Part shown: piece by piece, positions 3,854 to 22,862 of the stretch
Position numbering within the stretch: position 1 is the first letter of the stretch
Layout of the letters: every line of letters begins with the position of its first letter
From: Chloroflexota bacterium
GTDB lineage: Bacteria; Chloroflexota; Dehalococcoidia; DSTF01; RBG-16-68-14
Direction of reading: 5' to 3'
Assembly: GCA_022565155.1 (NCBI GenBank)
Contig: JADFKB010000002.1
Coordinates: forward strand, 5,955-69,954
Length of the DNA stretch: 64,000 nucleotides
Program-made: the position numbers and the translations under genes
Notes under the pieces: model-generated
Database searches by the model: none
What the model was told of the DNA's origin: nothing
The model's input: only the letters and a program-made list of their open reading frames with translations

Positions 3854-3895
3854 GAGCAACTGCCCGCCGAGGCAGCTTCGCCGTTGGAAGATGGG

Positions 3896-6030: not shown

Positions 6031-6036
6031 CACGGA

Positions 6037-6367: not shown

Positions 6368-6407
6368 ATGGAACCAGGAACGAAGAACAAGGAAGCAGGG
6401 ACGAGGA

Positions 6408-7409
6408 ATGAGCGAGGACAAGAAGCGAATACTAACCGGCATCCGGCCCACGGGTGCGTTGCATCTCGGACACTACGCCGGAGCGTTGGAGAACTGGCTG
6501 CGGCTGCAGGACGAGTACGACTGCTTCTTCCTCATCGCCGACTACCAGGTCTCCGACAAGGCCGATGACATCGATTCCGTCCGCGAGGCCGTGCGCGAGA
6601 TCGCGCTCGACTGGCTCGCCGTCGGCCTCGATCCGGAGCGCAGCCACTTCGTAATCGAGAGCCTGATCCCGGAGCACGCGGAGCTGACGTTGTGGCTGAG
6701 CTGGTGGCTGCCACTGGGCATGCTGCAGCGCAACCCGACGCTGAAGGCAGAGATGGCAGAGCTAGGGTCAAATTCGGTACCCGTCGCCTTCTTTACCTAC
6801 CCGGTGATGCAGATGGCGAACATCCTGATGCCGAAGGCGCACCTGGTACCCGTCGGCGAAGACCAGCTGCCGCACATCGAGATGACGCGGGAGGTCGCGC
6901 GGCGGTTCAACCGCCTCTTCGGCGAGGTGTTTCCGGAGCCGGAAGGGCTGGTCGGCCGCGTGCCGCGGCTCGTCGGGCTCGACGGCAACGCGAAGATGGG
7001 CAAGTCGCTGGACAACGCGATCCAGTTGAAGGACGACGCCGAGACCGTGACGAAGAAGGTGAAAGGCATGTTCACCGATCCGACGCGCCTGCGCGCCACC
7101 GACCCGGGCCACCTCGAGGGCAATCCGGTCTTCATGTACCACGATGCCTTCAACCCGGACACAGATGAGGTGCAGGACCTGAAAGATCGCTACGTCGTTG
7201 GCAAAGTCGGCGACGTGGAAGTGAAACAGAAGCTAGCCAATGCCCTGAACGCATTTCTCGATCCGATCCGGGAGCGTCGCGCGCACTACGAAGCGCGGCC
7301 GGAGCTGGTGCGCGAGGCGCTCGCCGCCGGCACCAGCCACGCCAAGCGTATCGCCGAGCAGACGATGGCCGAGGTGCGGAGCGCGTTGCGGCTGAACTAT
7401 CTGGAGTAG
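6408..7409 (+). CDS. trpS: tryptophan--tRNA ligase
   Basis: Class I aaRS HIGH-type motif (TGALHLGHY) and KMGKS. The ATG at 6408 follows an RBS. The longer 6360 ORF starts inside the terminator. Confidence 0.9.
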   Translation: MSEDKKRILTGIRPTGALHLGHYAGALENWLRLQDEYDCFFLIADYQVSDKADDIDSVREAVREIALDWLAVGLDPERSHFVIESLIPEHAELTLWLSWWLPLGMLQRNPTLKAEMAELGSNSVPVAFFTYPVMQMANILMPKAHLVPVGEDQLPHIEMTREVARRFNRLFGEVFPEPEGLVGRVPRLVGLDGNAKMGKSLDNAIQLKDDAETVTKKVKGMFTDPTRLRATDPGHLEGNPVFMYHDAFNPDTDEVQDLKDRYVVGKVGDVEVKQKLANALNAFLDPIRERRAHYEARPELVREALAAGTSHAKRIAEQTMAEVRSALRLNYLE

Positions 7410-8903
7410 ATGATGGCTACCTACACACCAACGCTGGACGAAGCGCGCGCGCTGGCCGATCAGGGCAACCTGGTGCCGGTCTACCGCGAGGTGCCGGCGG
7501 ATCTGGAGACGCCGGTCTCGGCGTTCCTCAAGGTCGCGCGCGGCAAGCATTCATTTTTACTGGAGAGCGTGGAGGGCGGCGAGCGGCTGGCCCGCTATAG
7601 CTTCATCGGCACGGAGCCGTATCGAGTGCTGCGCAACGGGCCGCACGCCGCCCGCAACGAAGAGCCGGGCGATCCGCTCGCTCTTGTCGAGCAGGAGCTC
7701 TCGCGGTTCCAGCTCGCGCCCGTAGCCGGACTGCCCCGCTTTCACGGCGGCGCTGTCGGCTATCTCAGTTACGAAACGATTCGCCACTTCGAGCCGAAAA
7801 TACCCGAGGCCGAATTCGACCCGCTCGGCCTCCCGGACGCGATCTTCCTCTTCATCGACACGCTGCTCGTCTTCGACCACCTGCAGCATGTGATCAAGGT
7901 CGTTTCGCACGTCCGGCTCGACGGCGATATCGATGCCGCCTACCGGCAGGCTGTCTGGCGGATCGAGGAGCTGGTCGGCCGGCTGGCGAAGCCGCTGGCG
8001 GCGTTGCCCTATCGTACAGGCGACGGCGCTACGCCGCCGGGAGAGATCACGTCGAACATGAGCCGCGAGGAGTACGCGCAGAAGGTCGAGCGGATCAAGG
8101 AGTACATCGTCGCGGGCGACTGCATCCAGGTTGTGCTATCGCAGCGGTTCTCCCGGCCGACGACCGCGCACCCGTTCGAGATCTATCGCGCGCTGCGCAC
8201 GATCAACCCGTCGCCGTACATGTTCTATCTGGAGCTTGGCGACGCCCAGGTTGTCGGCGCGTCGCCGGAGATGCTGGTGCGCGTGGAGGACGGCCATATC
8301 GACTACCATCCCATCGCCGGCACGAGGCCGCGCGGCCGCGACGAGGCGGAAGACGCCGCGCTGGAAGCGGAGCTGCGCCGGGACGAGAAGGAGCGGGCGG
8401 AGCATATCATGCTCGTCGATCTGGGGCGGAACGACGTCGGCCGGGTGAGCCAGCCGGGTACTGTCGAAGTGACGCAGCTCATGGACGTGGAGCGCTACTC
8501 GCACGTGATGCACCTCGTCTCGCACGTCACGGGCCGGCTCCGCGACGATATGTCGTCGTACGATGCGCTGCGTGCCAGCTTCCCGGCCGGCACCGTCTCC
8601 GGCGCGCCGAAAGTGCGGGCGATGGAGATCATCGCCGAACTGGAGCGCGACCGGCGCGGCGTCTACGCCGGCGCCGCCGGCTACTTCGACCTTTCGGGCA
8701 ACCTCGATACGGCGATCACGCTGCGCACGATGGTGGTGAAGGACGGCGTCGCGCATGTGCAGGCAGGCGGCGGCATCGTCTACGACAGCGAGCCGGAGAG
8801 CGAGTACCGGGAGACGGAGAACAAGGCGCGAGCGTTGCTGCGCGCGATCGAACAGGCTGAGGAGACAGCGGCGGCGACGCCGCGCGGGAGCCTGGGGTAC
8901 TAG
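7410..8903 (+). CDS. trpE: anthranilate synthase component I
   Basis: 497 aa with chorismate-binding enzyme motifs. Its start abuts the trpS stop (TAGATG). Confidence 0.9.
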
Positions 8904-8905
8904 CG

Positions 8906-10096
8906 ATGCCGGAGCTGCTGTCGCTCGCCCTCTTTGAACGCACCAGCCGCACGCTGGTCGTGAAACGCAAGGACGGCCACCAACCGTTCGCTGGGGCGTG
9001 GCTGCTGCCCGCCGCCGTCGTCGGCAGCGAGGAGTCGGCGGAAGAGGCGTTGGAGCGGCATACCCGTCGCGAGCTGGGCGTCGAGCTGGGCGAGTTGGAG
9101 TTCGCGGAGACGCTCTATCTGGAAGACACGACGCAAGCCGAGCGCTATGTCGTCAACATCTTCAAAGTGCTCGATCACGAGGGTGATCTGCGTTTTCGCG
9201 CAGCCGGCGACTACGACGACGCTCGCTGGCTCAGCGGCGATGAGCTGGCCGGGGTCGGTATCGCGCCTGCGCTGCTCGATTGGCTCCAGGCAGGCCGGCA
9301 TGAGGTGGCGCTGCCCACCGGCCCCGTCCCGGCGCCGGCGGGCGGCGCGACGCCGGACAACCGCCAGGGCTGGAACGCGATCTCGCGGGCGTATCAGGAG
9401 CAGTACCAGATTTCGACCGATAGCCTGGTCTATGGCCCGCGCTGCCCTGACGAATCGGAGCTGCAACTGTTGGGCGACGTCGATGGCCTGCGAGTTGTCG
9501 TCGTCGGCTGTGGCGGCGGGCAGGACTGCATCGTTCTGGCGAAGCAGGGGGCGCAGGTGATCGGCATCGACCTCTCGGACAAGCAGATCGAGTACGGCCG
9601 CCGCCTCGCCGAGCGCGAGCGCGTGGAGGTGACGCTACTGCAGGGCAACGCCGAGGAGCTTATCGGCATTGAGGACGAGAGCCAGGACCTGGCGATCTCC
9701 CTGCACGCGCTGGGCTACGTGGAGCGCATCGACCGCGCGTTCGCCGAGGCGTACCGCGTATTGCGGAGCGACTCAGCGTTTGTGTTCAGTGTGCATCACC
9801 CGTTCTTCGCCTCGCTGGAGGGCGGGCCACCGTACGGCGCGGTGAAGAGCTACTGGCAGCGGGAGCAGGACTGGCAGTGGGACTTCCCGGAGAAGAGCGT
9901 CTCGGCGCGGCTGCGTTCGTGGTACCGGCCGGTGAGCGAATGGTGCTCGCTGCTCACGGATGCCGGCTTCCGCATCGAGCGGCTGCTGGAGCCGCCGCCT
10001 GTGGAAGGCGGCGCGATACCGTGGGACAAGGGCTACAACCTGGAGAAGATGCGCCTGATCCCCGCGACGCTGATCGTAAAGGCGGTGAAGCCGTGA
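8906..10096 (+). CDS. fusion protein: N-terminal NUDIX-like hydrolase domain and C-terminal class I SAM-dependent methyltransferase
   Basis: Degenerate Nudix box GSEESAEEALERHTRRELGVELGE. Methyltransferase motifs VVVGCGGGQD, IGIDLS, DLAIS and LRSDSAFVFSV. Confidence 0.7.
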   Translation: MPELLSLALFERTSRTLVVKRKDGHQPFAGAWLLPAAVVGSEESAEEALERHTRRELGVELGELEFAETLYLEDTTQAERYVVNIFKVLDHEGDLRFRAAGDYDDARWLSGDELAGVGIAPALLDWLQAGRHEVALPTGPVPAPAGGATPDNRQGWNAISRAYQEQYQISTDSLVYGPRCPDESELQLLGDVDGLRVVVVGCGGGQDCIVLAKQGAQVIGIDLSDKQIEYGRRLAERERVEVTLLQGNAEELIGIEDESQDLAISLHALGYVERIDRAFAEAYRVLRSDSAFVFSVHHPFFASLEGGPPYGAVKSYWQREQDWQWDFPEKSVSARLRSWYRPVSEWCSLLTDAGFRIERLLEPPPVEGGAIPWDKGYNLEKMRLIPATLIVKAVKP

Positions 10097-10357
10097 GGGT
10101 GCATGTTCAGGCAATAACCCACGCTGTAGGTCGGGGTCTTCAGACCCTGACAAGGGCCGAGCTTTCCCGCCGCAGGCGGGTCCGCCTCTGGCGGAAGCTC
10201 AACCTCTACAGAGACAGAGGAACGGCAGGGTGTTTTCGGACAATAACCCAAACGGAGGAACGGGGGAATAACCCATGCTGTAGGCCGGGGTCTTCAGACC
10301 CCGACAAGAAGCCAGCGAGGGGTGGAAACCCTTTGCCTAAAGGAGTGGTAGAGAACC
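10097..10357. repeat. REP-like intergenic repeat cluster: two copies of an about 42 bp hairpin unit plus a CCCGCC-N-GGCGGG hairpin
   Basis: aataacccacgctgtaggtcggggtcttcagaccctgacaag at 10112 and aataacccatgctgtaggccggggtcttcagaccccgacaag at 10262. The hairpin gagctttcccgccgcaggcgggtccgcctctggcggaagctc is at 10150-10200. Confidence 0.55.
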
Positions 10358-10921
10358 GTGATCCTGCTGATCGATAACTACGATAGCTTTACCTACAACC
10401 TCTACCAGTACCTGAGCGAGCTGGGGGCGGAGGTGCATACCATCCGCAACGATCAGGCGTCGGCTGCGGAGGTCGAAGCGCTCTCGCCGGAACGGGTCGT
10501 GATCTCGCCGGGGCCCCGCACGCCCAACGAGGCCGGCATCAGCGTCGAGGTCGTCGAGCGGATGGCCGGCCGCGTGCCGATTCTCGGCGTCTGCCTGGGG
10601 CACGAATGCATCGCCGTCGCGTTCGGCGGCGAGATAGCGGGCGCGGGCGAGATCATGCACGGTAAGAGCAGCGCGATTTCGCACGACGGCAAGGGCGTCC
10701 TGCGCGGCCTGCCCGATCCGTTCGACGCGATCCGGTACCACTCGCTGGCCGTGGTGCCGGAGAGCGTGCCGGAGAGCCTGGAGGTGACGGCGCATAGCGA
10801 CAGCGGCGTGATCATGGGCATCCGTCACCGCGAGTACGCCATCGAGGGGATCCAGTTCCATCCGGAGAGCATCATGACCTCCGTGGGGAAGCAGATACTC
10901 CAGAACTTCCTGGAGATGTGA
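10358..10921 (+). CDS. trpG: anthranilate synthase component II (glutamine amidotransferase)
   Basis: Class I glutamine amidotransferase with GVCLGHE catalytic Cys and a C-terminal HPES motif. Confidence 0.9.
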   Translation: MILLIDNYDSFTYNLYQYLSELGAEVHTIRNDQASAAEVEALSPERVVISPGPRTPNEAGISVEVVERMAGRVPILGVCLGHECIAVAFGGEIAGAGEIMHGKSSAISHDGKGVLRGLPDPFDAIRYHSLAVVPESVPESLEVTAHSDSGVIMGIRHREYAIEGIQFHPESIMTSVGKQILQNFLEM

Positions 10922-10987
10922 CGGTTTGCGTGGAGTGTGCAGTACACTCATGTTGATGTACCAGCATTCGTACAAGGACTTTAATCG

Positions 10988-12001
10988 ATGATCCGTGACG
11001 CTATCGCCAAGCTCGTCGACGGCCACGACCTCACCGAAGAGGAAGCTGCCGGCTGTATGGAGCAGATCATGGCGGCAGAGGCGACGCCGGCCCAGTTCGG
11101 CGCGTTCGTCGTCGCGCTGCGGCTGAAGGGCGAGACGGTGGACGAGATCACGGGCATGGCGCGCGTGATGCGTGAGAAGTCGCTCCACGTCGAGGTCGAT
11201 GGCCCGCTGCTGGACACCTGCGGCACCGGCGGCAGCGGCAAGAGCGTCTTCAACGTCAGCACCGCCGCGGCCTTCGTCGCCGCCGGCGCGGGCGTCCGCG
11301 TCGCCAAACATGGCAACCGGGCGATGACCAGCGCCTGCGGCAGCGCCGACGTGCTGGAGGCGCTGGGTGGCAAGATCGATCTGCCGCCGGCAGGCGTGCA
11401 GGCGAGCATCGAGCAGGCCGGCTTCGGCTTCATGTTCGCGCAGGCGTTCCACCCGGCGATGAAGTTCGCCGGCGGGCTGCGGCGCGAGATTGGCGTGCGC
11501 ACCGTCTTCAACATCCTCGGGCCGTTGACCAACCCGGCGGGCGCGGAGGCGCAGGTGCTTGGTGTCAGCGACGTGGCGCTGGCCGAGAAGATGGCGCAGG
11601 TGCTGCTACGCCTGCACACGAAGCACGCGCTGGTCGTCTCCAGCGAAGACGGACTCGACGAGGTGGGCGTGAGCGCGAACACGCGGGTCTACGAGGTGAA
11701 ACAAGGCGCATTCGAGCGCTATATGCTGAATCCTGCCGGCCTCGGCCTCGCGACGCACCCGCTGGAAGAGCTGCGCGGCGGCTCGGCAGAGGAGAACGCC
11801 GCGACGATGCGCCGCGTGCTGGGCGGCGAGGCCGGTGCGCTGCGCGATTTCACGCTGATCAACGCCGCCGCCGCGTTCGTCGCCGCCGACTTAGCAGATG
11901 ACATCACCGCCGGGCTGAAACTGGCGGCGGGGTCTATCGATAGCGGCGCGGCGCTGGAGAAGCTGGAGTCGTGGGTGAAGGTGTCGAATGAGGTGGGGTA
12001 G
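10988..12001 (+). CDS. trpD: anthranilate phosphoribosyltransferase
   Basis: GTGGSGKSVFNVST and KHGNRA motifs. 337 aa. Confidence 0.9.
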   Translation: MIRDAIAKLVDGHDLTEEEAAGCMEQIMAAEATPAQFGAFVVALRLKGETVDEITGMARVMREKSLHVEVDGPLLDTCGTGGSGKSVFNVSTAAAFVAAGAGVRVAKHGNRAMTSACGSADVLEALGGKIDLPPAGVQASIEQAGFGFMFAQAFHPAMKFAGGLRREIGVRTVFNILGPLTNPAGAEAQVLGVSDVALAEKMAQVLLRLHTKHALVVSSEDGLDEVGVSANTRVYEVKQGAFERYMLNPAGLGLATHPLEELRGGSAEENAATMRRVLGGEAGALRDFTLINAAAAFVAADLADDITAGLKLAAGSIDSGAALEKLESWVKVSNEVG

Positions 12002-12028
12002 CAGTATGCAGATGGGAGAGGCGGTGTC

Positions 12029-13015
12029 ATGCAGGAATTAGGGACATTAGAACGGATCGACGCCCGGAAAGTTTGGACGAACGAGGCTCACGATTTCACA
12101 CCGTGGTTAGAAAAAAATATTTCGTTGCTGGGTGCGGCGCTGCAACTCGACCTAGATCTGGTTGAGTCAGAAGTCAGGGTTGGACCGTTCGCCGCAGATC
12201 TTGTGGCGAAAGACGTATCCAATGACAGGTGGGTCGTCATCGAAAACCAGCTAGAAGCGACTGACCACAGTCACCTAGGGCAGCTTCTGACCTATGGAGC
12301 CGGGCTTGACAATGAGGCGGCGGTCTTTGTCTGGATCAGCCCAGAGTTTCGCGACGAACATCGCGCAGCGTTGGATTGGCTCAATGAACACTCGGATGAA
12401 GAGTCGCTCTTTTTTGGCGTCGTGATCGAGTTGCTAAAGATTGACGACTCGCCGCCTGCTCCCAACTTCAGGCTCGTTTCATACCCGAATGACTGGAAGA
12501 AGAGCGGTGGAAGCGCGAGGCCTGCGATGTCGCAGAAGGGCGCGGCGTATAAGCAGTTCTTTGGCGGCCTCCTGAGCCGCTTTAAGGAACGCTATCCAGG
12601 CGAAACGAACGTCGCGACAGCTTCCCCTCAGAACTGGCTCAACCTTAGCATCGGCAAGAGTGGTTTCTTAACGAATTGGAGCTTCACCGGCGACAATCGC
12701 TTCCGTGTGGAGATCTCCATTGATACAGGTGAGGCCGAAATCAATTTAGCGTACTTCCAGCAGTTGCGCCGCAGCAGCGCGGCGATCGAGGAGAAAATCG
12801 GTCACGCTCTGGATTGGGACGAAGTAGAAGGAAAGCGGGTGTGTAGAGTGCACTCCTATTACGACAAGCCGGGTTCGATTTCCAGCAGCGATGAAGAACT
12901 ACGCGCGCTGGAGGAGTGGGCGATAGATGAGATGAAGACGTTTCGAGATGCTCTCCGTCCGGCGATTCAGCAATTGCCGTCCAACGTCTCGCTAAACGAG
13001 ACGGAATCGCCATGA
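12029..13015 (+). CDS. uncharacterised PD-(D/E)XK nuclease-like protein (NucS/DUF91-like N-terminal motif); lower-GC insert
   Basis: GPFAADLVAKDVSNDRWVVIENQLEATDHSHLGQLLTYGAG fits the D...(D/E)x(K/Q)...QxxxY nuclease core. GC by eye is about 52-55% against about 68% in the flanks. The gene overlaps trpC by 4 bp. Confidence 0.55.
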   Translation: MQELGTLERIDARKVWTNEAHDFTPWLEKNISLLGAALQLDLDLVESEVRVGPFAADLVAKDVSNDRWVVIENQLEATDHSHLGQLLTYGAGLDNEAAVFVWISPEFRDEHRAALDWLNEHSDEESLFFGVVIELLKIDDSPPAPNFRLVSYPNDWKKSGGSARPAMSQKGAAYKQFFGGLLSRFKERYPGETNVATASPQNWLNLSIGKSGFLTNWSFTGDNRFRVEISIDTGEAEINLAYFQQLRRSSAAIEEKIGHALDWDEVEGKRVCRVHSYYDKPGSISSSDEELRALEEWAIDEMKTFRDALRPAIQQLPSNVSLNETESP

Positions 13016-13854
13016 CTGACACTACTGAAACCGGCACGATCCTCGACCGCATCGTTGCCGACAAGCGCGAGGAGTTGGAGAAGCGACAGCGCGAGGAGCC
13101 GATCGACGCGCTCCAGCGGCGCATCCGCGAGCTGGACGAGCAGTGGAGCCTGGCCGAGGCGATCCTCGAGGGCCCGCGCGGCCCGCACGCCGGCGGCAAG
13201 CGTGTCCAGCTCATCGCCGAGATCAAGAAGGCCTCGCCTTCGAAGGGGAGGCTCGTCGCGGAGCTGGAGCACCGGTCGCTCGCCCGTACGTATACCATAG
13301 GAGGCGCTGCTGGCATCTCCGTCGTTACGGAGCGCAAGCACTTCCTGGGCGAGGTGCAGTTCATGCTGGACGTAAGAATGGTGCTTAAGGGCTACTACCC
13401 CGGCGGCCGGCCATCGATCCTGCGCAAGGACTTTCTTTTCGACCCCTACCACCTTTGGGAAGCGCGGGCCTACGGGGCCGACGCGGTCCTGCTCATCGCC
13501 GCGATTCTTGAGGGCAGCCAACTGCGCGACCTGATCGACCAGGCGCGGGAGCTGGATATGGAATCACTGATCGAAGTGCACGATGAAGCGCAGGTGGAGC
13601 GCGCTGTCGAGGCCGGCGCGGACCTGATCGGCATCAACAACCGCGATCTGCGCACGTTCAACGTCGACCTGGCGACGACAGAGCGGCTGCGTCCGCAGAT
13701 TCCCGACGACAAGGTCGTCATCAGCGAGAGCGGCATCTCCACCACCGCTGACGTCGAGCGGCTGGCCGACTGTGGGGTGCATGCGGTGTTGGTCGGAGAG
13801 GCGCTGATCACGGCCAGTCATGTTCGCGAGAAAATGAGCGAGGTGCTGTTGTGA
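13012..13854 (+). CDS. trpC: indole-3-glycerol phosphate synthase
   Basis: IAEIKKASPSKG, ISVVTE and GINNRDL motifs. Confidence 0.9.
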   Translation: MTDTTETGTILDRIVADKREELEKRQREEPIDALQRRIRELDEQWSLAEAILEGPRGPHAGGKRVQLIAEIKKASPSKGRLVAELEHRSLARTYTIGGAAGISVVTERKHFLGEVQFMLDVRMVLKGYYPGGRPSILRKDFLFDPYHLWEARAYGADAVLLIAAILEGSQLRDLIDQARELDMESLIEVHDEAQVERAVEAGADLIGINNRDLRTFNVDLATTERLRPQIPDDKVVISESGISTTADVERLADCGVHAVLVGEALITASHVREKMSEVLL

Positions 13855-14567
13855 CGAAGGTGAAGATCTGCGGCTGCATGCGCGTGCAGGACGCGATGGC
13901 GGCGAAAAAGGCCGGCGCGGAGTTCGTCGGCCTCGTCTTCGCGCCCAGCAGCCGGCGCAAGCTCTCGGTCGAACGGGCACAGGCGATCGTCGTGGCGCTG
14001 GCCGACGGCGAACGTAGGCAGCCGCGGCCGCCGCTCGTGTCGGTCAGCGGGGACGATAACATCGAAACCTGGTTTCAGCACGGCGCGGAGGCGTTGGAAC
14101 GCATCCTGGCGCGCAGGCGGCCGCTGACAGTTGGAGTGTTCGAGGATCAGCCGCTGGAGGAGATAAACTCGATCGCAGAGGCCTGTGGCCTGGACATGGT
14201 GCAACTGAGCGGCCATGAATCGTGGGCCGATTGCGTACTGGCCAATCGACAGGTCGTCAAGACGGTGGAGACACCGGCAGGCATCGCCGCCGAGGATGTT
14301 ATGGATGGCATGGAGACTGGTACGGCTATCGCCTGTCTGTTAGACGGCAGCCGTGGCCAGGGACAGCCAGTCAACCTTGAAGTCGCCGCGGCTATCGCCG
14401 CAGAACTGCCGGTTTGGCTGGCCGGAGGCCTGACGCCGGAGAACGTATCGGCCACCATACGGCGGGTGCAGCCCTGGGCAGTCGACGTCTCGAGCGGCGT
14501 GGAGACGGACGGCGTCAAGGACGCGAAGAAGATCCACGCCTTCGTCTCGGCGGCGAAGGGGCAGTAG
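13851..14567 (+). CDS. trpF: phosphoribosylanthranilate isomerase
   Basis: MTKVKICG N-terminus and GLVF motif. GTG start overlaps the trpC stop. Confidence 0.85.
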
Positions 14568-14568
14568 C

Positions 14569-15795
14569 GTGATGGCTACCGCCCGCCCTGACGAACGCGG
14601 CCGTTACGGCGCATTTGGCGGCCAATTCGTGCCGGAGACGCTGATGACGGCGCTCGGCGAGCTGGAGCGCGCCTTCGCCGAGGCGCAGGACGACGCCTCG
14701 TTCCAAGAGGAGCTGGCCGCTTTGCTGCGCGACTTCGTCGGCAGGCCGACGCCGCTCTATCTGGCGGCGAACCTCTCGAAGCGGCTGAGCGGCACGCAGG
14801 CGAACGGTAGCCCGCGCGTGCGCATCTATCTCAAGCGCGAAGACCTGGCTCACACCGGCGCCCACAAGATCAACAACGCAGTCGCCCAGGGCCTGCTGGC
14901 ACGCCGGCTGGGCAAGAACCGCATCATCGCGGAGACGGGCGCTGGCCAGCACGGCGTGGCGGCGGCGACCGTCTGCGCCATGTTCGGCCAGGAGTGCATC
15001 GTCTACATGGGTGCGGAGGACGTCCAGCGGCAGGCGCTGAACGTCTTTCGGATGAAGCTACTGGGAGCGGAGGTGCGCATCGTCGACAGCGGCAGCCGCA
15101 CGCTGAAGGACGCGATCAACGAGGCGATCCGCGATTGGGTGACGAACGTTGAGACGACACACTACCTGCTGGGCAGCGCCGTTGGCCCGCACCCCTATCC
15201 GTTGATGGTGCGCGAGTTCCAGTCTGTCATCGGCAGCGAGGCGCGCGAGCAGATCATGGCCGTGGAAGGCCGGCTGCCCGACTACGCCGTCGCCTGCGTC
15301 GGCGGCGGCTCGAACGCGATCGGACTCTTCCATCCGTTCTACGACGACGAGGCCGTTCGCTTCATCGGCGTTGAGGCCGCGGGCGATGGCATCGAGACGA
15401 ATCGCCACGCAGCGCCGCTAGCGGCCGGACGGCCGGGGGTGCTGCATGGGGCGTACTCGTTCCTGATGCAGGATGAGGGAGGCCAGATCGAGGAGGCGCA
15501 CAGCATCTCGGCCGGCCTCGACTACCCGGGCGTGGGGCCGGAGCACTCCTTCTACAAAGAGAGCGGCCGCGCGGAGTACGCGAGCGCAACCGACGACGAG
15601 GCGCTGGCGGCGTTCCGGCTGCTGAGCGAGACGGAGGGGATCATTCCGGCGCTGGAGCCGGCCCACGCACTGGCACACGTGGCGAAGCTGGTACGGGATA
15701 TACCGGACGATTCTATCGTGCTCGTAGGCCTGTCCGGCCGCGGTGATAAGGACATGGAGATCGTGGCTGGCGCACTCGGCGTCCAGTTAACGTAG
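14569..15795 (+). CDS. trpB: tryptophan synthase beta chain
   Basis: PLP-lysine motif HTGAHKINN and GAGQHG. Confidence 0.92.
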
Positions 15796-15797
15796 TC

Positions 15798-16355
15798 GTG
15801 CAGACCGTGGACTTGCATTCCGATGACCAATCGGCGGTCGAACAGGCTGCGGCGCTGCTTGTCGATCTACTGCCGGAAGGCTGGTCAACCATGGAGTCGG
15901 CGCTGCGGGAGGTGGCGGAATCGTTGCCGGATGAGCGGATCAGCCGCATCGCCAGGGAAGGAGAAGAGGTGGTCGGCTGGGTGAGCGGGCAGGAGGCGTA
16001 TATCGGCCACACTTGGGAGCTGCACCCGCTGGTGGTGAAGCGCGAGCGCCACAGACAGGGCATCGGCCGCGCGCTCGTTGCCGACCTGGAGGAGCGCGTG
16101 CGCGAACGCGGCGGCCACACCGTCTACCTGGGTACCGACGACGAACGCGGCGAGACGAGCCTGGCGAACATCGAGCTTTACCCAGACCCGCTCGAGCACG
16201 CGGCGCGTATCACCAACCCCGGCGGCCACCCATACGAGTTCTACCAACACGTGGGGTACACTATCGTCGGTGTTCTGCCAGACGCCAACGGCTTCGGCCG
16301 GCCCGACATCTTCATGGCGAAGCGTATCGCGCCGCTCGCCGCGCCACAGACCTAG
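15798..16355 (+). CDS. GNAT acetyltransferase, AAC(6')-like
   Basis: RQGIGRALV and LGTDDE motifs, similar to aminoglycoside 6'-N-acetyltransferases. Confidence 0.65.
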   Translation: MQTVDLHSDDQSAVEQAAALLVDLLPEGWSTMESALREVAESLPDERISRIAREGEEVVGWVSGQEAYIGHTWELHPLVVKRERHRQGIGRALVADLEERVRERGGHTVYLGTDDERGETSLANIELYPDPLEHAARITNPGGHPYEFYQHVGYTIVGVLPDANGFGRPDIFMAKRIAPLAAPQT

Positions 16356-16364
16356 GAGGGCGTC

Positions 16365-17219
16365 ATCGAACCTGAATCTCGCTACTACAACTCCCAGCGG
16401 CTGAAGCTGCACTACGCCGTCTGGGGTGACGAATCGAAGCCGCCGCTGCTGCTGATCCACGGCGGCCGCGACCACGTCCGAAACTGGGACTACGTTGCGG
16501 AGGCGATGGTCGATGAGTACTGCGTCTACGCGCCGGACCTGCGCGGTCACGGCGACAGCGACTGGTCGATCGGCGGGCAGTACAGCATGACGGAGTTCGT
16601 GCTCGACGTCTCTGTGCTGGCCGATGTGCTCGACCGCGATCCGCTGACGATCATCGGCCACTCGCTGGGCGGCGGCGTCGCGCTCCAGTACGCCGGCGTT
16701 TGCCCGGAGCGGGTGGTGAAGGTCGTCTCGATTGAAGGGCTTGGCCCGCCGATGCAGCCACCACGCTCGGCGCACGAACGCATGAAGGAGTGGATCGGCC
16801 ACATGCGCCAGTTCGAGCAGCGCAAGCCGCGCCGCTACCCGTCGATCGACGCCGCCGTCACGCGGATGGAAGAAGAGAACCCGCACCTCTCGGAGGAGAT
16901 GGCGCGCCACCTCACCGTTCACGGCCTGCGCCAGAACGACGATGGCACCTACACCTGGAAGTTCGACAACTACGTGCGCATCCATTCGCCGTACCAGTTC
17001 AACATCGAGGACGCGCGCGACATTTGGAACCAGATCCGCTGTCCGGTGCTACTGGTGCGCGGAGATGAAAGCTGGGCGGGCGACCCGGAGAAAGACGGCC
17101 GCGCCAGCGCGTTTCACGACTACTGCTTGGTAACGATTAAGGATGCTGGCCACTGGGTGCACCACGACCGGCTAGAGGAGTTCCTAAAGGTTTCGCGGCG
17201 GTTCCTGCTGGGAGAGTAA
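16365..17219 (+). CDS. alpha/beta hydrolase fold protein (no canonical start codon in frame after the upstream stop)
   Basis: HGGRDH and GHSLGG nucleophile elbow. The homologous sequence begins right after the TAG at 16353, with an AGGAGG at 16354-16359 and then ATC at 16365. Confidence 0.65.
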   Translation: MEPESRYYNSQRLKLHYAVWGDESKPPLLLIHGGRDHVRNWDYVAEAMVDEYCVYAPDLRGHGDSDWSIGGQYSMTEFVLDVSVLADVLDRDPLTIIGHSLGGGVALQYAGVCPERVVKVVSIEGLGPPMQPPRSAHERMKEWIGHMRQFEQRKPRRYPSIDAAVTRMEEENPHLSEEMARHLTVHGLRQNDDGTYTWKFDNYVRIHSPYQFNIEDARDIWNQIRCPVLLVRGDESWAGDPEKDGRASAFHDYCLVTIKDAGHWVHHDRLEEFLKVSRRFLLGE

Positions 17220-17257
17220 GGCGGCTCGCGCTTCTAACGTAGGCGCGGGCCTTCACC

Positions 17258-17311
17258 TGCCCGCCGACAGGCGGGGACCCTCGCGAAGCCAGTCGGGGTC
17301 TAACGACCCCG
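17258..17311. terminator. pair of GC-rich hairpins between convergent genes (cccgccgacaggcggg and cggggtctaacgaccccg)
   Basis: Same hairpin families as at 10130, 10160, 10283 and 29133. Lies downstream of both the hydrolase (+) and DUF2064 (-) genes. Confidence 0.45.
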
Positions 17312-17313
17312 AT

Positions 17314-18018
17314 CTACGGTAGAGCCTTCACTGTTGCTTGGGGTTGTAGCTGGGGATCGAGCATGCGCAGCGTATGCTTCGGCGTCCAGCCTCTCGTAGC
17401 AAACTCGAGCGTCGCCAGGTCGGTGCGAAGACGCTGCAGATCCTCCGGCGTGTCCACGTCGTAGAGCGTGTCGAGCAAGCTGACGCGCAGCCCGGCCGCC
17501 TTCGCATGGCGCAGCGTCGACGATAGCACGGCGCTCGTCCCCCAATCGACGCCTTCGAACAGCCTGGGCTGCGGCGTCCGGCAGGCGAGCAGGTAGTAGC
17601 CGCCGTCGGCGCTGGGGCCGAGGCAGAGGTCGAGCGCGTCCAGCTCGCGCAGGGCTGCGCGCAGGTGGCTTGGTAGGAGAAGAGGCGCATCTGTGCCGAT
17701 CATGACCAGCGGTGCATGGCCCGCGCTCTCCACACGCTGTAGCGCCGCCAGCATCCGCTCGCCCAGGCCGATGCCTTCCTGGGGAATGACAATAGCCCGG
17801 CCTGCGAACTCGGCTGTCGCCCAGGCAACCGCCGAAGCAGGTGTGACAGCGAGATACACGGAGCCCAGGTCCGCCGCCAGCGAGACCTGTACCGCGTCGT
17901 TCAGGAACGCCTGCTGCAACCGAAGACAGGCTTCGGCTGAAAGCGCCGGACGCAGCCTCGTCTTACCCTCGCCCAGGCGAGGCGCGCGCGCCATGACGAT
18001 GACAGCAGGATTAGTCAT
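17314..18018 (-). CDS. DUF2064 / TIGR04282-family nucleotidyltransferase-like (putative glycosyltransferase) protein
   Basis: MTNPAVIVMARAPRLGEGKTRL N-terminus and a GIGLGERM motif. The ORF-track N-terminal extension runs into the upstream gene and is not believed. Confidence 0.7.
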   Translation of the reverse strand: MTNPAVIVMARAPRLGEGKTRLRPALSAEACLRLQQAFLNDAVQVSLAADLGSVYLAVTPASAVAWATAEFAGRAIVIPQEGIGLGERMLAALQRVESAGHAPLVMIGTDAPLLLPSHLRAALRELDALDLCLGPSADGGYYLLACRTPQPRLFEGVDWGTSAVLSSTLRHAKAAGLRVSLLDTLYDVDTPEDLQRLRTDLATLEFATRGWTPKHTLRMLDPQLQPQATVKALP

Positions 18019-19000
18019 CAGCGGCCAGCTCTCCGACGAGTACCAGGGGCTGGCGGCCGCGTTCGTCCTCCGGCCAGGCGGTTGTCGCTTCGTTGGCGTC
18101 GCCGCTCCTCTGCGGGCGGTGCTTCGTGAAGTACTCGTCGCACCAGAGGCAGACGTTGCCCAGCTCACGAATACGCTTACGGGCGTATTCAAGGTCAATG
18201 CCGGTCGTGACGCCCATCGCCGCGGGGTCGCCGCGATTCAGCGCCTCCCACATCGGATCGCCGCGGTGCCGGTCGAGGATGTCGAGCAGCGGCTCTTGGG
18301 CGACGTCCCCCAATGCCTCGACCGTGCCCGGGCAGCACGGGTAGACGGAGGTGAGCTGGATCGCGGTCTCCTGTCGATCGCTGCCGTCATCCAGAAAGCC
18401 GAGCGCGCCCGACCAGAGGGCGCAGACGTTGTGTTCCGGGTCATCCTTCCATATGCCGTTGCGCAGCGCGCGGCCGCGGGCCCAGAGACCGCCCAGCCAG
18501 AGGTCCGGCGTCGCGCCCCAGAACGAGAACGTGCGCAGGGCCGGCTTCTTTGCCGAGGGATCCCCGACGTCGACCTCGAGCAGGCCGCGGCTGACGAGCA
18601 GGGTGTGTAGCCGTTCGCGCAGGCCGTCGCGGCGGGCGTGGTAGGGGTCCTGGCTGGCGATGCTGATGTGTTGAACACCTGCGTCCAGCAGGCGGTCCAA
18701 TGCATCCGCGTCCAGCAGATCACCGTTCGTTTGGAGGGCGAGGTGGGTGCCGCTGCCGTACTTCCGGCGAGCCTTACGAAGGATATGAAGCAGCATCTCG
18801 GGTTCCGTCAACGGCTCGCCGCCGCTGAGGATCAGCCGGTTGGTGTCAGGCAGATGTTCGATCACCGCGTCTGCCTCGCTTAGGGTGACCGTCGGGCCGC
18901 CCGGGCGCGAGTGGTTATAGCAGTGAGCGCAGTACTGGTTGCAGCGGTGGGTGAAGACCCAGTAGATCGATTCCATGATCACAAGCCTATGATAGATCAT
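18011..19000 (-). CDS. radical SAM protein, possibly with extra Cys-rich C-terminal cluster motifs
   Basis: CNQYCAHCY (CxxxCxxC) near the N-terminus, plus C-terminal YPCCPG and CLWCDEY. Confidence 0.8.
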   Translation of the reverse strand: MIYHRLVIMESIYWVFTHRCNQYCAHCYNHSRPGGPTVTLSEADAVIEHLPDTNRLILSGGEPLTEPEMLLHILRKARRKYGSGTHLALQTNGDLLDADALDRLLDAGVQHISIASQDPYHARRDGLRERLHTLLVSRGLLEVDVGDPSAKKPALRTFSFWGATPDLWLGGLWARGRALRNGIWKDDPEHNVCALWSGALGFLDDGSDRQETAIQLTSVYPCCPGTVEALGDVAQEPLLDILDRHRGDPMWEALNRGDPAAMGVTTGIDLEYARKRIRELGNVCLWCDEYFTKHRPQRSGDANEATTAWPEDERGRQPLVLVGELAADD

Positions 19001-19024
19001 CTCGATGTTAGGTGATCGGCAATA

Positions 19025-19699
19025 CTAGCGGACGTGTTGGTAGAAGCGGCCGAGCCAGCGCGGAGAGACCGGCAGGAAGTAGAGCAGCTGCACCGTCCAC
19101 CAGGAGGCCCAGGTGCGCCAGAAGCCGCCGTGACGCCACCGGCGCGACGAGGGTACAACGGTCTGCGCCAGCGCCGCGAGCTTGCCAACGCGTCGCATTC
19201 GAATAACCAGGTTCGCGTCTTCCATGATCTGCCAGTCCGCGAAGCCTCCCAGCCGCTCGAAGAAGTCGCGGCGGACGAAGATCGCAGAGTCGCCGTAGAC
19301 GAGGCCGCGGCCTCCGAACCGAAGCAGGTCGTAGATGACGGCGATGAAGACCTGTTGCAGCGTCCGGCCGAATCGGACGCGGAAAAAGCCGCCGATGACT
19401 TCGGGATCGCGAAGCGCGTCTTCGATTGCGGCCAGGGCGTCGGGCGGCAGCCGGACGTCGGCGTGGAGGAAGAGGAGCGTGTCGCCGGTGGCCCGCGCCG
19501 CGCCGGCGTTGAGCTGCGCCCCGCGCCCCGCGCGCGAGCGCACGATCGTCGTGTGCGGCGCGGCGAGTTCGACCGTGCCGTCGTCGCTGCCGCCGTCCGC
19601 CACGATCACCTCGGAGGGGTGGAGGCGCTGGAGCCGGCGCAGCGCGTCTTCGATGACGGACGCTTCGTTCAGCGTGGGGATGATGATCGAGCAGCGCAT
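19025..19699 (-). CDS. family 2 glycosyltransferase (TIGR04283-like)
   Basis: IIIPTLNE start, ADGGSDDGT and a DxD-like LHADV motif. Confidence 0.75.
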   Translation of the reverse strand: MRCSIIIPTLNEASVIEDALRRLQRLHPSEVIVADGGSDDGTVELAAPHTTIVRSRAGRGAQLNAGAARATGDTLLFLHADVRLPPDALAAIEDALRDPEVIGGFFRVRFGRTLQQVFIAVIYDLLRFGGRGLVYGDSAIFVRRDFFERLGGFADWQIMEDANLVIRMRRVGKLAALAQTVVPSSRRWRHGGFWRTWASWWTVQLLYFLPVSPRWLGRFYQHVR

Positions 19700-19766
19700 A
19701 GACGTTCGCCGGTTGGCCTAGCTGAGGTGATACGCGACAATGCCAGTGTACCAGGAAGGAGCGCGC

Positions 19767-20486
19767 ATGGAGACCGCTGCCCCCGCCTCGGAGCGCGGGA
19801 TCGACCCGAAGCCTTGGGGCATTCCGGCGATCGCCGCCGTGCTCGCGATTCCCGTGGCGTTGTTCGCCTCCAGCTTCCTCGTTGACGCCCCCGATGATCT
19901 CACCACAGGCGAGATCGTGGTAGGGCTCGTCAGCACCCTAGTATTCAAAGATGCGCTGTTCATCGGTCTCGTGGCCGCGTTCGCCGTGTGGCGATATCGG
20001 CTCGGCTGGCAGGGACTCGGGCTCCGGCCCTTCGATCGAAGTCTCTGGTGGCTGCCGGTCGTCGCTGCCGCTGCTGCGCTGGTCACCGTGATCGTCTATA
20101 GCGCCATTCTCGTCGGTCTCGGATTCGACCAACCCGAGCAGAGAGAGGTGCAGACGTTTTTCGAGAGCAATGCCGCGTTGCCTCTTACCGGCTTCGCGCT
20201 CGTGATCATGGCGCCGCTCTCCGAGGAGATCTTCTTCCGCGGCTTCATCTTCCCCGGCCTCATCCGGCCTCTCGGCCTCGCCGGCGGGATGGTGGCGAGC
20301 GGCATCCTCTTCGGCGCCTTCCATATCACGGGCTCGGACACCGTCGCTCTCTTGCTGCCATTCAGTGCCATCGGCGCTCTCTTCTGCTGGCTCTACTATC
20401 GCACCGGTTCGCTCTGGCCGAGCATTATCACCCACCTCCTCTTCAACTCCGTTGGCTTCGCCGTCGGCGCTATCGGAGCGCAGTAA
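19767..20486 (+). CDS. CPBP family intramembrane metalloprotease (CAAX protease/Abi-like)
   Basis: SEEIFFRGF, FGAFH and HLLFN motifs. The ATG at 19767 follows an AGGAAGGAG RBS. The stop overlaps the trpA ATG (TAATG). Confidence 0.8.
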   Translation: METAAPASERGIDPKPWGIPAIAAVLAIPVALFASSFLVDAPDDLTTGEIVVGLVSTLVFKDALFIGLVAAFAVWRYRLGWQGLGLRPFDRSLWWLPVVAAAAALVTVIVYSAILVGLGFDQPEQREVQTFFESNAALPLTGFALVIMAPLSEEIFFRGFIFPGLIRPLGLAGGMVASGILFGAFHITGSDTVALLLPFSAIGALFCWLYYRTGSLWPSIITHLLFNSVGFAVGAIGAQ

Positions 20487-21277
20487 TGAACCGGATTGAG
20501 CAGGCGTTCGACCGCGCCAAGCGCGAAGAGCGCGTGGCGCTGATCGGCTACCTGACGGCGGGCTACCCGGAGCCGGACGCGACGGTGGGTCTGGCGCAGG
20601 CGCTCGTCGCCGGCGGCGCCGACGCGATCGAGCTGGGGCTGCCGTTTTCGGACCCGCTGGCGGACGGCGTGACGATGCAGCGCGCGAACCTGAAGGCGCT
20701 GGAGCAGGGGATGACGGTCGCCCGCAGCCCGGGGCTGATCAAGGATCTGCGCGCGGCGGGGGTTGTCATTCCCCTCATCGTTATGACATACTACAATCCC
20801 ATCCTCGCCTACGGCCAGGATGGGTTTGTCCAGGATGTCGCCGCGGCGGGAGCGGACGGCTTGATCGCCGTCGATCTGCCGCCGGAAGAGGCGGAGGAGC
20901 TCTCTGGCCACTGTCACGCCGAGGGGGTGGCGTTCGTTCCCCTCTTGGCGCCGACATCGACCGATGAGCGGATCGCCCTCGTGACGCGGCGGGCCTCCGG
21001 CTTCATCTACTGCGTCAGCGTAGCTGGCGTGACCGGCGCCAGGAAGGCGCTGCCCCCGGAGCTGGGGGAGTACCTGCAGCGTGTGCGACGGCAGACATCG
21101 CTGCCGCTGGCCGTGGGCTTCGGTATCTCCCGCCGGGAGCACATCGAAGCGCTGCGCGGCCATGCGGACGCCGTCATCGTCGCCAGCGCGATCGTCGATC
21201 TCATCGAGGCGACGCCTCGTGAGGAGAGGGAACAAGCGGTTAGAGAGTATGTGGAGGTGCTCACCGGTCGTGGGTAG
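20486..21277 (+). CDS. trpA: tryptophan synthase alpha chain
   Basis: AGADAIELGLPFSDPLADG and GFGIS motifs. Confidence 0.9.
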   Translation: MNRIEQAFDRAKREERVALIGYLTAGYPEPDATVGLAQALVAGGADAIELGLPFSDPLADGVTMQRANLKALEQGMTVARSPGLIKDLRAAGVVIPLIVMTYYNPILAYGQDGFVQDVAAAGADGLIAVDLPPEEAEELSGHCHAEGVAFVPLLAPTSTDERIALVTRRASGFIYCVSVAGVTGARKALPPELGEYLQRVRRQTSLPLAVGFGISRREHIEALRGHADAVIVASAIVDLIEATPREEREQAVREYVEVLTGRG

Positions 21278-21420
21278 GTCTGAGTCTAACGGTGATGCGC
21301 AGCGACGCTGCGCGATCGTGCCGCGCGCGCTCAGCGTGCTTGCGGCCGGCGCCTATGACGCAGCCCTCCCGGCCGGCACCTTTGGCCGCTAGGCCGGAGC
21401 TGCTAGGGAGCAAGGCCGGA

Positions 21421-21822
21421 ATGGGCATGCGCTGTCGAGGTATCCGCGGGGCGACCACCGTTGACGTGAACACCCCCGAGGCGATCCTTGAGGCCACCGC
21501 CGAGCTGCTGGCGGAGATGATGCGGGCCAACGATCTGTTGATCGACGATGTGGCCAGCGCCTACTTCACCACCACTCGCGACCTGAACGCCGAATTCCCT
21601 GCCGTGGCTGCGAACAAGCTGGGCTGGACGGATGTCGCCTTGCTCTGCGGCCACGAGATGGAGGTTCCCGGCAGCCTGCCACTGTGCCTGCGCATCCTTC
21701 TCCACGTCAATACGGAGAAGGCGGCGCGGGACCTAGCGCACGTATATCTGCGGGGGGCGACAGTTCTCCGCCCAGATCGAACGTATGCGAATGACGAAGT
21801 AACGGAGGCGAAATCGCCATGA
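21421..21822 (+). CDS. aroH: chorismate mutase, AroH class
   Basis: RGIRGATTV N-terminus and TRDLNAEFPA motif typical of AroH-type chorismate mutases. Confidence 0.75.
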   Translation: MGMRCRGIRGATTVDVNTPEAILEATAELLAEMMRANDLLIDDVASAYFTTTRDLNAEFPAVAANKLGWTDVALLCGHEMEVPGSLPLCLRILLHVNTEKAARDLAHVYLRGATVLRPDRTYANDEVTEAKSP

Positions 21823-22862
21823 TGGTCATTATGACTAACGAGCACAGCGAGGAGGAGATGAACGCCATCCTCCGGAGGCTGGACGAGATCGGACTGAAAG
21901 GGCACCCCATTGTCGGTGTCGAGCGCACAGTCATCGCCGTTGTCGGCAGCATCTACCCTGAGCTGAGCGACGAGCTGGAGACGATGGATGGTGTGGAGAG
22001 CACCGTCCGGATCAGCACGCCGTACAAGTTGGCCAGCCGGCAGACCAAGCCAGAGTCGACGGTGGTGAAGGTAGGCGGCGTCGAGATCGGCTCCGGCAAG
22101 ACCGTGATGATCGCTGGGCCGTGCGCTGTCGAGAGCGAGGAGCAGATACTGGCGACAGCAAGAGCGGTGAAAGAAGCCGGCGGCCACCTTATGCGCGGAG
22201 GCGCGTTCAAGCCGCGCACGTCGCCCTACAGCTTCCGCGGGCTGGGGGAGGAGGGCCTGAAGCTGCTCGCCCTCGCTCGAGAGGAGACGGGCCTCGCGTT
22301 CGCCACGGAGGTGATGTCCGTCCGAGAGGTGGAGGTGGTGGCAAAGTACGCGGACATCCTGCAGATCGGCGCGCGCAACGCCCAGAACTTCATGCTGCTG
22401 GAGGAGGTTGGGCGCACAGGCAAGCCGGTGCTGCTCAAGCGCGGCTTGGCGTCGACGATCGACGACTGGCTGTTGGCGTCTGAGTACATCCTGAACACCG
22501 GCAACCCGAACGTGATACTCTGCGAACGCGGTATCCGCACCTTTGAGACCGCGACGCGGAATACGCTGGACATCAACGCCATCCCGCTGGTCAAGCAGTT
22601 GAGCCACCTGCCGCTGATCGCGGATCCGAGCCACGGAACGGGCAAGTGGTCGCTGGTGAAGCCGGTCGGCCTGGCGTCGATAGTGGCCGGCGCGGACGGC
22701 CTGATCGTCGAAGTGCATCCGAGCCCGGATCATGCGCTCTCTGACGGCGCGCAGTCGCTCAACTTCCAGCGCTTCCGCGAGCTGATGGAGCAGATGCGGG
22801 TGATTGGCGAGACGGTCGGCAGGCCGCTCTTGCCCGCCGCGACGGAGCCGGTCCGGACGTAA
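21819..22862 (+). CDS. 3-deoxy-7-phosphoheptulonate (DAHP) synthase, type I-beta with N-terminal regulatory domain
   Basis: KPRTSPYSF, ADILQIGARN and IADPSHG motifs. ATGA overlap with aroH. Confidence 0.9.
   Translation: MMVIMTNEHSEEEMNAILRRLDEIGLKGHPIVGVERTVIAVVGSIYPELSDELETMDGVESTVRISTPYKLASRQTKPESTVVKVGGVEIGSGKTVMIAGPCAVESEEQILATARAVKEAGGHLMRGGAFKPRTSPYSFRGLGEEGLKLLALAREETGLAFATEVMSVREVEVVAKYADILQIGARNAQNFMLLEEVGRTGKPVLLKRGLASTIDDWLLASEYILNTGNPNVILCERGIRTFETATRNTLDINAIPLVKQLSHLPLIADPSHGTGKWSLVKPVGLASIVAGADGLIVEVHPSPDHALSDGAQSLNFQRFRELMEQMRVIGETVGRPLLPAATEPVRT

Follow-up and report, generated by a model that had tools for sequence, protein, structure and literature searches.

A Chloroflexota gene cassette that joins the transferases of arsenosugar-type loci to an unnamed radical SAM family

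A 64-kb stretch of the genome of a Chloroflexota bacterium of the class Dehalococcoidia (contig JADFKB010000002.1), called the window throughout, carries three co-directional minus-strand open reading frames (ORFs) that occupy positions 17314-19699 in the order family 2 glycosyltransferase (GT2), radical S-adenosylmethionine (SAM) enzyme and DUF2064 protein. We tentatively favour reading this trio, with a confidence just short of evenly balanced, as a variant of the ArsS-TIGR04283-TIGR04282 cassette in which ArsS has been replaced by a member of an unnamed radical SAM family. The cassette type, from annotation, and both transferase families are already known. What appears to be new is a distinct, widespread and uncurated radical SAM family that uses the same DUF2064/GT2 module as ArsS, that takes the place of ArsS in a conserved three-gene cassette of Chloroflexota, and that is embedded in arsenosugar-type neighbourhoods of other phyla. 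Arsenosugars are major arsenic species of aquatic food webs, and to our knowledge experiment has demonstrated only the first steps of their synthesis, those of ArsM and ArsS; the present finding touches the later steps. It offers a testable order of reactions, from modified nucleoside to sugar-1-phosphate, nucleoside diphosphate (NDP)-sugar and glycoside, together with a new enzyme for assay.

The three genes of the trio are the following.
19025..19699, minus strand: GT2, a family 2 glycosyltransferase of TIGR04283 ("glyco_like_mftF"), 224 amino acids, the first gene of the trio.
18011..19000, minus strand: radical SAM protein of the unnamed family, with an N-terminal core and a Cys-rich, twitch-like C-terminal domain, 329 amino acids.
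17314..18018, minus strand: DUF2064 protein of TIGR04282 ("glyco_like_cofC"), with a CofC/MobA-like nucleotidyltransferase fold, 234 amino acids.

An earlier reading of the sequence, here called the original prediction, had placed three packed minus-strand genes at 17314-19699, and ORFs were found at exactly those coordinates. The spacing of 4-24 bp that it gave holds for the first junction, where the radical SAM ATG at 19000 follows the GT2 stop after 24 nt, but not for the second, where instead of a 4-bp gap the radical SAM stop and the DUF2064 ATG share an 8-nt overlap (ATGACTAA) that suggests translational coupling of the two genes. Homologues of the radical SAM protein keep as their start an internal ATG at 18976 ("MESIYW"), which is probably the true start here as well and would widen the first gap to 48 nt. 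The G+C content at third codon positions (GC3) of the trio, 0.83-0.88, is the same as that of the neighbouring genes. A promoter and terminator scan of 16900-20100 returned nothing exceeding shuffled expectation, and an Rfam scan of both strands of the whole window found no family at gathering score, and so no riboswitch or leader.

Both transferases belong to the families to which the original prediction had likened them. The GT2 protein scores 214.9 bits against TIGR04283 (cutoff 182), with residues 4-220 aligned to positions 2-221 of the 221 in the model, and 73.1 bits against PF00535; its closest solved relatives are GT2 enzymes of the polyprenyl-phosphate/dolichol-phosphate mannose synthase type. 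For the DUF2064 protein the scores are 182.3 bits on TIGR04282, where the cutoff is 134, and 105 bits on PF09837; it contains a P-loop-like segment (PRLGEGKTRL) and has as its closest solved structure 3cgx, a structural-genomics entry deposited as a "putative nucleotide-diphospho-sugar transferase" (E 2e-21). It also matches 2i5e, PF01983, PF12804 and, at 63.5 bits and under the cutoff of 105, the CofC model TIGR03552. The identity to counterparts in ArsS cassettes is a median of 40% for GT2 and about 38% for DUF2064. In the window the TIGR04283 and TIGR04282 genes lie in one operon with the radical SAM gene between them, and elsewhere they are directly adjacent or fused.

Both TIGR04282 and TIGR04283 are currently named "arsenosugar biosynthesis glycosyltransferase" in NCBIfam, and an older JGI name for the two is "rSAM/selenodomain-associated transferase". 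The arsenosugar names were given because the genes adjoin that of the characterised radical SAM enzyme ArsS (TIGR04167); judged by their sequences, both transferases are unremarkable representatives of known families whose functional names come from gene association only. The original prediction had held that the function of the trio was not established, which stands for the transferases and needs amending on the other side, as ArsS adenosylates dimethylarsenite and the families now have names. Within the searched literature we found no biochemical studies of TIGR04282, TIGR04283 or the new radical SAM family; the term "DUF2064" returned no papers, and the TIGR accessions occur as annotation mentions only. 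Among five more distant DUF2064 homologues none had a radical SAM gene nearby, and their surroundings differ (rhodanese, DoxD-like, GT2, rhomboid, methyltransferase). Automatic "arsenosugar" labels on these two families have been taken as evidence of arsenic detoxification (e.g., PMC13077682). Such labels call for caution, given that the radical SAM partners of TIGR04282 and TIGR04283 genes are of no fewer than two kinds, and that these genes often have no such partner.

ArsS adds a 5'-deoxyadenosyl radical to dimethylarsenite, DMAs(III), to give 5'-deoxy-5'-dimethylarsinoyladenosine (PMC13598754), and the citing passage of PMC12159101 credits the activity to Cheng et al. 2021. The radical SAM protein of the window is not ArsS. 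TIGR04167, which has a membership threshold of 300 bits and on which true ArsS proteins score 418-447 bits, lies outside its 25 best families, all of which score at most 51.8 bits. The BLASTP alignment with the Thiodictyon ArsS covers 64 N-terminal residues (E 0.007), and the profile-profile match obtained with hhalign is confined to the radical SAM core, over about 103 columns at 76% probability. The CX3CX2C radical SAM motif is common to both proteins, whereas the window protein lacks the motifs CDFNQ and HCYGCTAGxGSSC of the ArsS C-terminus and has HNVC, PCCPG and CLWCDEYF instead.

A named family for this protein was likewise sought and rejected. It scores 66 bits against PF04055 (Radical_SAM), and no NCBIfam or Pfam model fits beyond this generic family and Fer4_12; the best NCBIfam match, NirJ, reaches 51.8 bits against a cutoff of 515. 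The N-terminal core has NCBIfam and PDB matches that include HxsC, PqqE, YydG/EpeE, CteB and SuiB. For the C-terminal half alone there were no NCBIfam matches, Pfam gave only sub-threshold SPASM and CPCC models, and a PDB sequence search with the C-terminal domain returned chance matches only, such as the cytochrome bc1 core protein. This domain holds five cysteines in addition to the radical SAM triad; the features below are numbered from the ATG at 19000.
18920..18943, minus strand: CX3CX2C motif (C20, C24, C27), reading CNQYCAHC, the radical SAM [4Fe-4S] site, conserved in 187/189 members.
18422..18424, minus strand: Cys193 in HN[FV]C (HNVC here), conserved in 189/189; it precedes a beta-hairpin in the predicted model and is a candidate first ligand of an auxiliary cluster.
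18326..18340, minus strand: PCCPG with the vicinal pair Cys222-Cys223, both conserved in 189/189; distant relatives keep PCC.
18140..18151, minus strand: CLWC (Cys284 and Cys287) within CLWCDE[FY]F, conserved in 189/189 and 188/189.

All eight cysteines are present in at least 187 of the 189 family members. The extra C-terminal cysteines to which the original prediction had drawn attention, in the motifs YPCCPG and CLWCDEY, are indeed there and are invariant across the family (at least 188/189). In the predicted model C193 is followed by a hairpin (E211-220), C222/C223, helices and C284xxC287, a fold that matches those of EpeE and BtrN, while the SPASM model PF13186 gives only a weak match (E 0.14). 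On this model, four of the five C-terminal cysteines that are invariant probably bind one auxiliary [4Fe-4S] cluster, and the fifth is spare. As(III) is bound at thiol sites in ArsD and ArsM, and by analogy the Cys-Cys pair and the CxxC motif could serve as an As(III) thiol site.

The family to which this protein belongs, retrieved with the pattern CLWCDE[FY]F, is large in number and narrow in sequence. A set of 5.8 billion proteins holds 1095 homologues at E ≤ 1e-3, and at least 520 species-level genome loci encode the family among the matches listed. At E ≤ 1e-30 the members fall into only about 57 clusters at 50% identity, which marks a compact family with strong conservation; between Chloroflexota and Bacteroidota members the identity is 45-50%. 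Source annotations call them only "radical SAM protein", "organic radical activating enzyme" or "hypothetical protein". More distant relatives of 280-370 amino acids (P0258-P0261, P0322 and P0329) keep the CX3CX2C motif, followed by NFC, PCC and CxxC. They form two groups, P0322 and P0329 being weak matches to the YydG family and P0258 being without an NCBIfam match. The shared motifs suggest that these relatives and the family form a larger uncharacterised clade.

Neighbourhoods of ±8-10 kb were compared for the best 80 of the at least 520 species loci, 54 of them well flanked. In Chloroflexota and Dehalococcoidia the order GT2, radical SAM, DUF2064 is found in all seven loci, with the radical SAM proteins 55-75% identical, and since the same trio recurs in the same order each time the arrangement is not due to chance; the three genes thus co-occur elsewhere, as the original prediction had supposed. 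The full trio is essentially limited to Chloroflexota, and a GT2 gene lies near the new radical SAM gene in only 9 of the 80 loci (6 of the 54 with full flanks). The linkage to DUF2064 extends across phyla: a DUF2064 gene stands beside the radical SAM gene in 32 of the 54 well-flanked loci, drawn from Chloroflexota, Bacteroidota, Acidobacteriota, Planctomycetota and other groups. The true number is probably higher, as DUF2064 frequently falls at the extreme edge of the 8 kb fetched. In a few loci the radical SAM gene is alone, as in L081, where it lies beside a PadR gene.

A typical Bacteroidota operon starts with a DUF2064-like gene, whose 80.6 bits on TIGR04282 are below the cutoff; a TonB-dependent receptor comes next, followed by a YnjB-like binding protein (NF008633, 385 bits), a pair of permeases, an ATPase and, further on, the radical SAM gene. 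Some of these loci have, before the radical SAM gene, an IU-type nucleoside hydrolase and a methylthioribose (MTR)-kinase-like protein (TIGR01767, 107.7 bits), and the two lie directly upstream of it in 6-7 loci. Counted over the 54 well-flanked loci, the YnjB-like substrate-binding protein occurs in 37, the TonB-dependent receptor in 31 and the ABC ATPase in 29. After the radical SAM gene, some Bacteroidota loci (L007, L014, L023, L045, L076 and others, at about 400-10600) encode two paralogue-sized proteins of about 210 amino acids and one of about 125, none of them with a significant match in Pfam or NCBIfam. The pair of ~210-residue proteins is almost the sole conserved partner in L072 and L043.

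In some lineages the new radical SAM gene is co-localised with organoarsenical genes. Leeuwenhoekiella sp. L074 has at 2429-11890 the string ABC transporter, nucleoside hydrolase, MTR-kinase-like protein, new radical SAM protein, rhodanese, TIGR04169, ArsS and ArsM. Here ArsS scores 433.6 bits and the arsenosugar-type ArsM (NF038099) 569.3 bits, the rhodanese is NF045521 ("near glyco"), and the TIGR04169 protein is AhpD-like, an "arsenosugar biosynthesis-associated peroxidase-like protein"; this isolate looks like a promising experimental system. The Singulisphaera locus L034 combines a TVP38/FAD oxidoreductase, a DUF2064-GT2 fusion, the new radical SAM protein, an ArsM-like gene and ArsS, and Armatimonadota locus L051 combines the new radical SAM protein, a TIGR04169-like gene and ArsS. 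The fusion in L034, a single ORF of 479 amino acids at 2785-4224 that joins DUF2064 to a TIGR04283-like GT2, supports joint action of the two. ArsM-like genes occur in L023, L041 and L062, DUF547 in L020, L049 and L066, and a sterol desaturase in L076. Altogether about 10 of the 80 loci have hallmark companions of ArsS cassettes, which by a rough estimate is far above expectation for genes present about once per genome.

For comparison, 80 metagenomic ArsS loci (L093-L172) were taken, of which 19 are well flanked (4 kb or more on each side). Their commonest order is a bare ArsS, GT2, DUF2064 (14 loci), almost certainly the recurring trio that the original prediction had in mind when it described the cassette as present in many bacteria; the description fits that arrangement and does not fit the trio with the radical SAM protein of the window. 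The 19 well-flanked loci contain GT2 in 13 cases, DUF2064 in 12, TVP38/FAD oxidoreductase in 8 and an ArsM-like methyltransferase in only 3, and on this last count the "arsenosugar" label may not describe the native role in many bacteria. On the Thiodictyon plasmid pTs417 the order is GT2, sterol desaturase, ArsS, TIGR04282. An Acinetobacter plasmid has ArsS, TVP38/FAD oxidoreductase, DUF547, TIGR04283, TIGR04282, methyltransferase, phosphate transporter and MtnP, and on Burkholderia glumae plasmids MtnP adjoins TIGR04282. The new radical SAM protein was found in none of the 80 ArsS loci, which indicates that it and ArsS are mostly alternative partners of the DUF2064/GT2 module that sometimes co-occur.

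If the trio is a variant of the ArsS cassette, its radical SAM enzyme would make or modify a nucleoside-derived pentose, and it might do so in either of two ways. Like ArsS acting on dimethylarsenite, it may add a 5'-deoxyadenosyl radical to a heteroatom substrate, an option suggested by the parallel between the cassettes, or it may abstract a hydrogen atom from the ribose of a nucleoside or nucleotide, an option suggested by the resemblance of its fold to EpeE, viperin and BtrN. The base would then be removed and C1 phosphorylated, here perhaps by housekeeping enzymes such as methylthioadenosine (MTA) phosphorylase, and elsewhere perhaps by MtnP in ArsS cassettes and by the nucleoside hydrolase and MTR-kinase-like protein in Flavobacteriia and Cytophagia. 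The CofC-like DUF2064 protein would condense the resulting sugar-1-phosphate with a nucleoside triphosphate (NTP) to give an NDP-sugar, and GT2 would pass the sugar to an acceptor, which may lie at the membrane, since the nearest solved relatives of GT2 are polyprenyl-phosphate mannose synthases. The substituent carried by the sugar would most likely be arsenic or a related metalloid or chalcogen. For this genome that is the least secure step.

Several observations weigh against this reading. None of the genes for ArsM, ArsS, ars resistance, nucleoside hydrolase or MTR kinase was found in the 64-kb window, so that the link to arsenic is drawn from other phyla. The new radical SAM protein and a true ArsS occur together in three loci (L074, L034 and L051), and the former is therefore no simple substitute for ArsS everywhere. 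Most Bacteroidota loci, moreover, have the TonB-dependent receptor and the YnjB-like ABC importer and no GT2, from which uptake or catabolism instead of biosynthesis is possible. The window was also searched for TIGR04169, rhodanese, DUF547, MtnP, sterol desaturase and TVP38/FAD oxidoreductase genes, and none was found; its methyltransferases, at 3038-3853 and 8906-10096, are generic class I enzymes that score far below the ArsM cutoffs, including that of NF038099.

A bolder form of the proposal, which we regard as rather unlikely, is that the new radical SAM enzyme catalyses an undescribed radical reaction in organo-metalloid metabolism that feeds the same DUF2064/GT2 module as ArsS. Candidates would be a second route to a sugar with a C-As (or C-Se/C-S) bond, or the remodelling of 5'-deoxy-5'-dimethylarsinoyl-adenosine/-ribose. 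Were this true, remodelling could lead toward thio-arsenosugars, arsenolipids or arsenobetaine precursors, and arsenosugar-type chemistry would extend to Chloroflexota and to many marine Bacteroidota.

The alternatives can be weighed against the same evidence. The radical SAM protein may be a tailoring enzyme (an epimerase, dehydratase or dehydrogenase) whose substrate is either an ordinary NDP-sugar supplied by DUF2064 or the product of GT2, a possibility of some substance although we think it unlikely. The reaction would be hydrogen abstraction, with a conserved cysteine re-donating hydrogen as in EpeE, and would require neither heteroatom chemistry nor arsenic here. The five invariant C-terminal cysteines suit such an enzyme, as they could supply four auxiliary-cluster ligands and one spare; in EpeE, likewise, an extended twitch domain houses an auxiliary cluster, and Cys223 is catalytic (PMC13012085). 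The weak matches of distant relatives to the YydG family (47-82 bits) and the absence of arsenic genes from the window point the same way. Against tailoring, the family is found repeatedly within ArsS, ArsM and TIGR04169 neighbourhoods and beside nucleoside hydrolase and MTR-kinase-like genes, and the cassette has an architecture parallel to that of the ArsS cassette, whose enzyme ArsS forms a sugar instead of tailoring one.

It is considerably less probable that the family helps to take up an exogenous compound of organo-metalloid or nucleoside-like type, such as an algal arsenosugar, and to salvage or catabolise it. The trio of Chloroflexota would then be a module for remodelling instead of a de novo pathway. 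The frequencies of the YnjB-like protein, TonB-dependent receptor and ABC ATPase given above argue for this, as do the SusC/SusD genes in some loci and the many hosts that are marine or aquatic Bacteroidota. The Chloroflexota loci, however, have no transporter in or beside the trio, a GT2 and a nucleotidyltransferase are biosynthetic enzyme types, and in L074 the biosynthetic ArsS and ArsM share a gene string with the new radical SAM protein.

The matches of the N-terminal core to HxsC, PqqE, YydG/EpeE, CteB and SuiB, and the TIGR nicknames "like MftF" and "like CofC", could also be taken to mean that the protein matures a peptide made on the ribosome and modified after its translation (RiPP) or, like the mycofactocin enzyme MftC, a cofactor, with the MftF-like GT2 and the CofC-like protein decorating a peptide-derived cofactor. 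This is very improbable. The trio has no room for a peptide gene, which disfavours the idea: a 24-nt gap, the 8-nt overlap and 40 nt upstream of GT2 leave no space for a precursor, and no independent small ORF was found in the intergenic gaps. Neither a RiPP recognition element nor a full SPASM domain was detected, and a conserved small-ORF cluster is absent from the 80 loci. Least of all can the trio be a canonical arsenosugar cassette with its radical SAM protein as the ArsS orthologue, as the NCBI "arsenosugar biosynthesis" names of the flanking genes would have it, for the absence of TIGR04167 from its 25 best families, the purely N-terminal similarity and the missing ArsS C-terminal motifs refute it at the sequence level.

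In the trp operon the trio sits between trpB and trpA; its neighbours there are a GNAT gene, a gene for an alpha/beta hydrolase and a divergent gene for an Rce1-like CPBP protein.
16506..17219, plus strand: alpha/beta hydrolase (PF12697, PF00561), convergent with DUF2064; conserved beside the trio in L001, L002 and L083.
19740..20486, plus strand: Rce1-like CPBP membrane protease (PF02517, 78 bits), divergent from GT2, its stop overlapping the trpA start; synteny conserved.

Most of the seven Chloroflexota loci keep the synteny from trpB through to trpA, chorismate mutase, 3-deoxy-D-arabino-heptulosonate 7-phosphate (DAHP) synthase and ScpA, and the position within the trp operon is for this reason read as inherited gene order. 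The original prediction was right to place the trio inside the operon next to the CPBP gene, a location that is lineage-conserved synteny, with nothing to link it functionally to the trio; the CPBP protein and the alpha/beta hydrolase are context only. More broadly, positions 6360-22862 hold a tryptophan and aromatic operon interleaved with unrelated genes. The order begins with TrpRS, TrpE, a fusion of NUDIX and class I methyltransferase domains (8906-10096), TrpG, TrpD and a DUF4268 protein (12029-13015), and continues with TrpC, TrpF, TrpB, GNAT, alpha/beta hydrolase, the trio, CPBP, TrpA, chorismate mutase and DAHP synthase; from TrpB to ScpA it is the same in related Chloroflexota metagenome-assembled genomes. 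The DUF4268 gene, which sits between trpD and trpC, has a G+C content of 0.545 against about 0.65-0.69 for its neighbours and a GC3 of 0.64 against 0.8-0.9, and its low G+C suggests a recent insertion.

Known systems resemble the trio in part. The DUF2064 protein is like CofC/FbiD, the 2-phospho-L-lactate/phosphoenolpyruvate (PEP) guanylyltransferase, and like MobA-like NTP transferases in its matches to TIGR03552, PF01983, PF12804 and 2i5e, a likeness that suggests NTP-dependent activation of a phosphorylated small molecule; unlike CofC/FbiD, it scores below the CofC cutoff (105 bits) and has no F420 genes nearby. Viperin, BtrN, BlsE, SpeY, DesII and AbmM, which are twitch/SPASM radical SAM enzymes that modify nucleotides and sugars, have no sequence similarity to the radical SAM protein outside the radical SAM core, and none of them is known to be associated with DUF2064 or TIGR04283. 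The peptide epimerase EpeE/YydG is 14% identical to it, TIGR04078 (YydG/EpeE; threshold 300 bits) is not among its top matches, and it differs further in having no peptide substrate gene and in having sugar and nucleotide enzymes as its genomic partners. The salvage of MTA and 5'-deoxyadenosine by MtnP, or by MtnN and MtnK, is echoed by MtnP in ArsS cassettes and by the hydrolase and MTR-kinase-like protein beside the new radical SAM gene, the shared logic being the conversion of a 5'-substituted adenosine to a ribose-1-phosphate. The genes of that pathway are absent from the window, however, and the clusters lack the isomerase and aldolase that the true pathway has. The ArsS-TIGR04283-TIGR04282 cassette differs from the trio in its radical SAM family, that of the window being another one with a different Cys-rich C-terminal domain, in its order, which is radical SAM-GT2-DUF2064 as against GT2-radical SAM-DUF2064, and in its companions, as ArsM, TVP38/FAD oxidoreductase and DUF547 are not near the trio of the window. 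What the two have in common is the design: three tightly coupled genes, one of them encoding a radical SAM protein, with GT2 and DUF2064 proteins that fall in the same families above cutoff and are about 40% identical.

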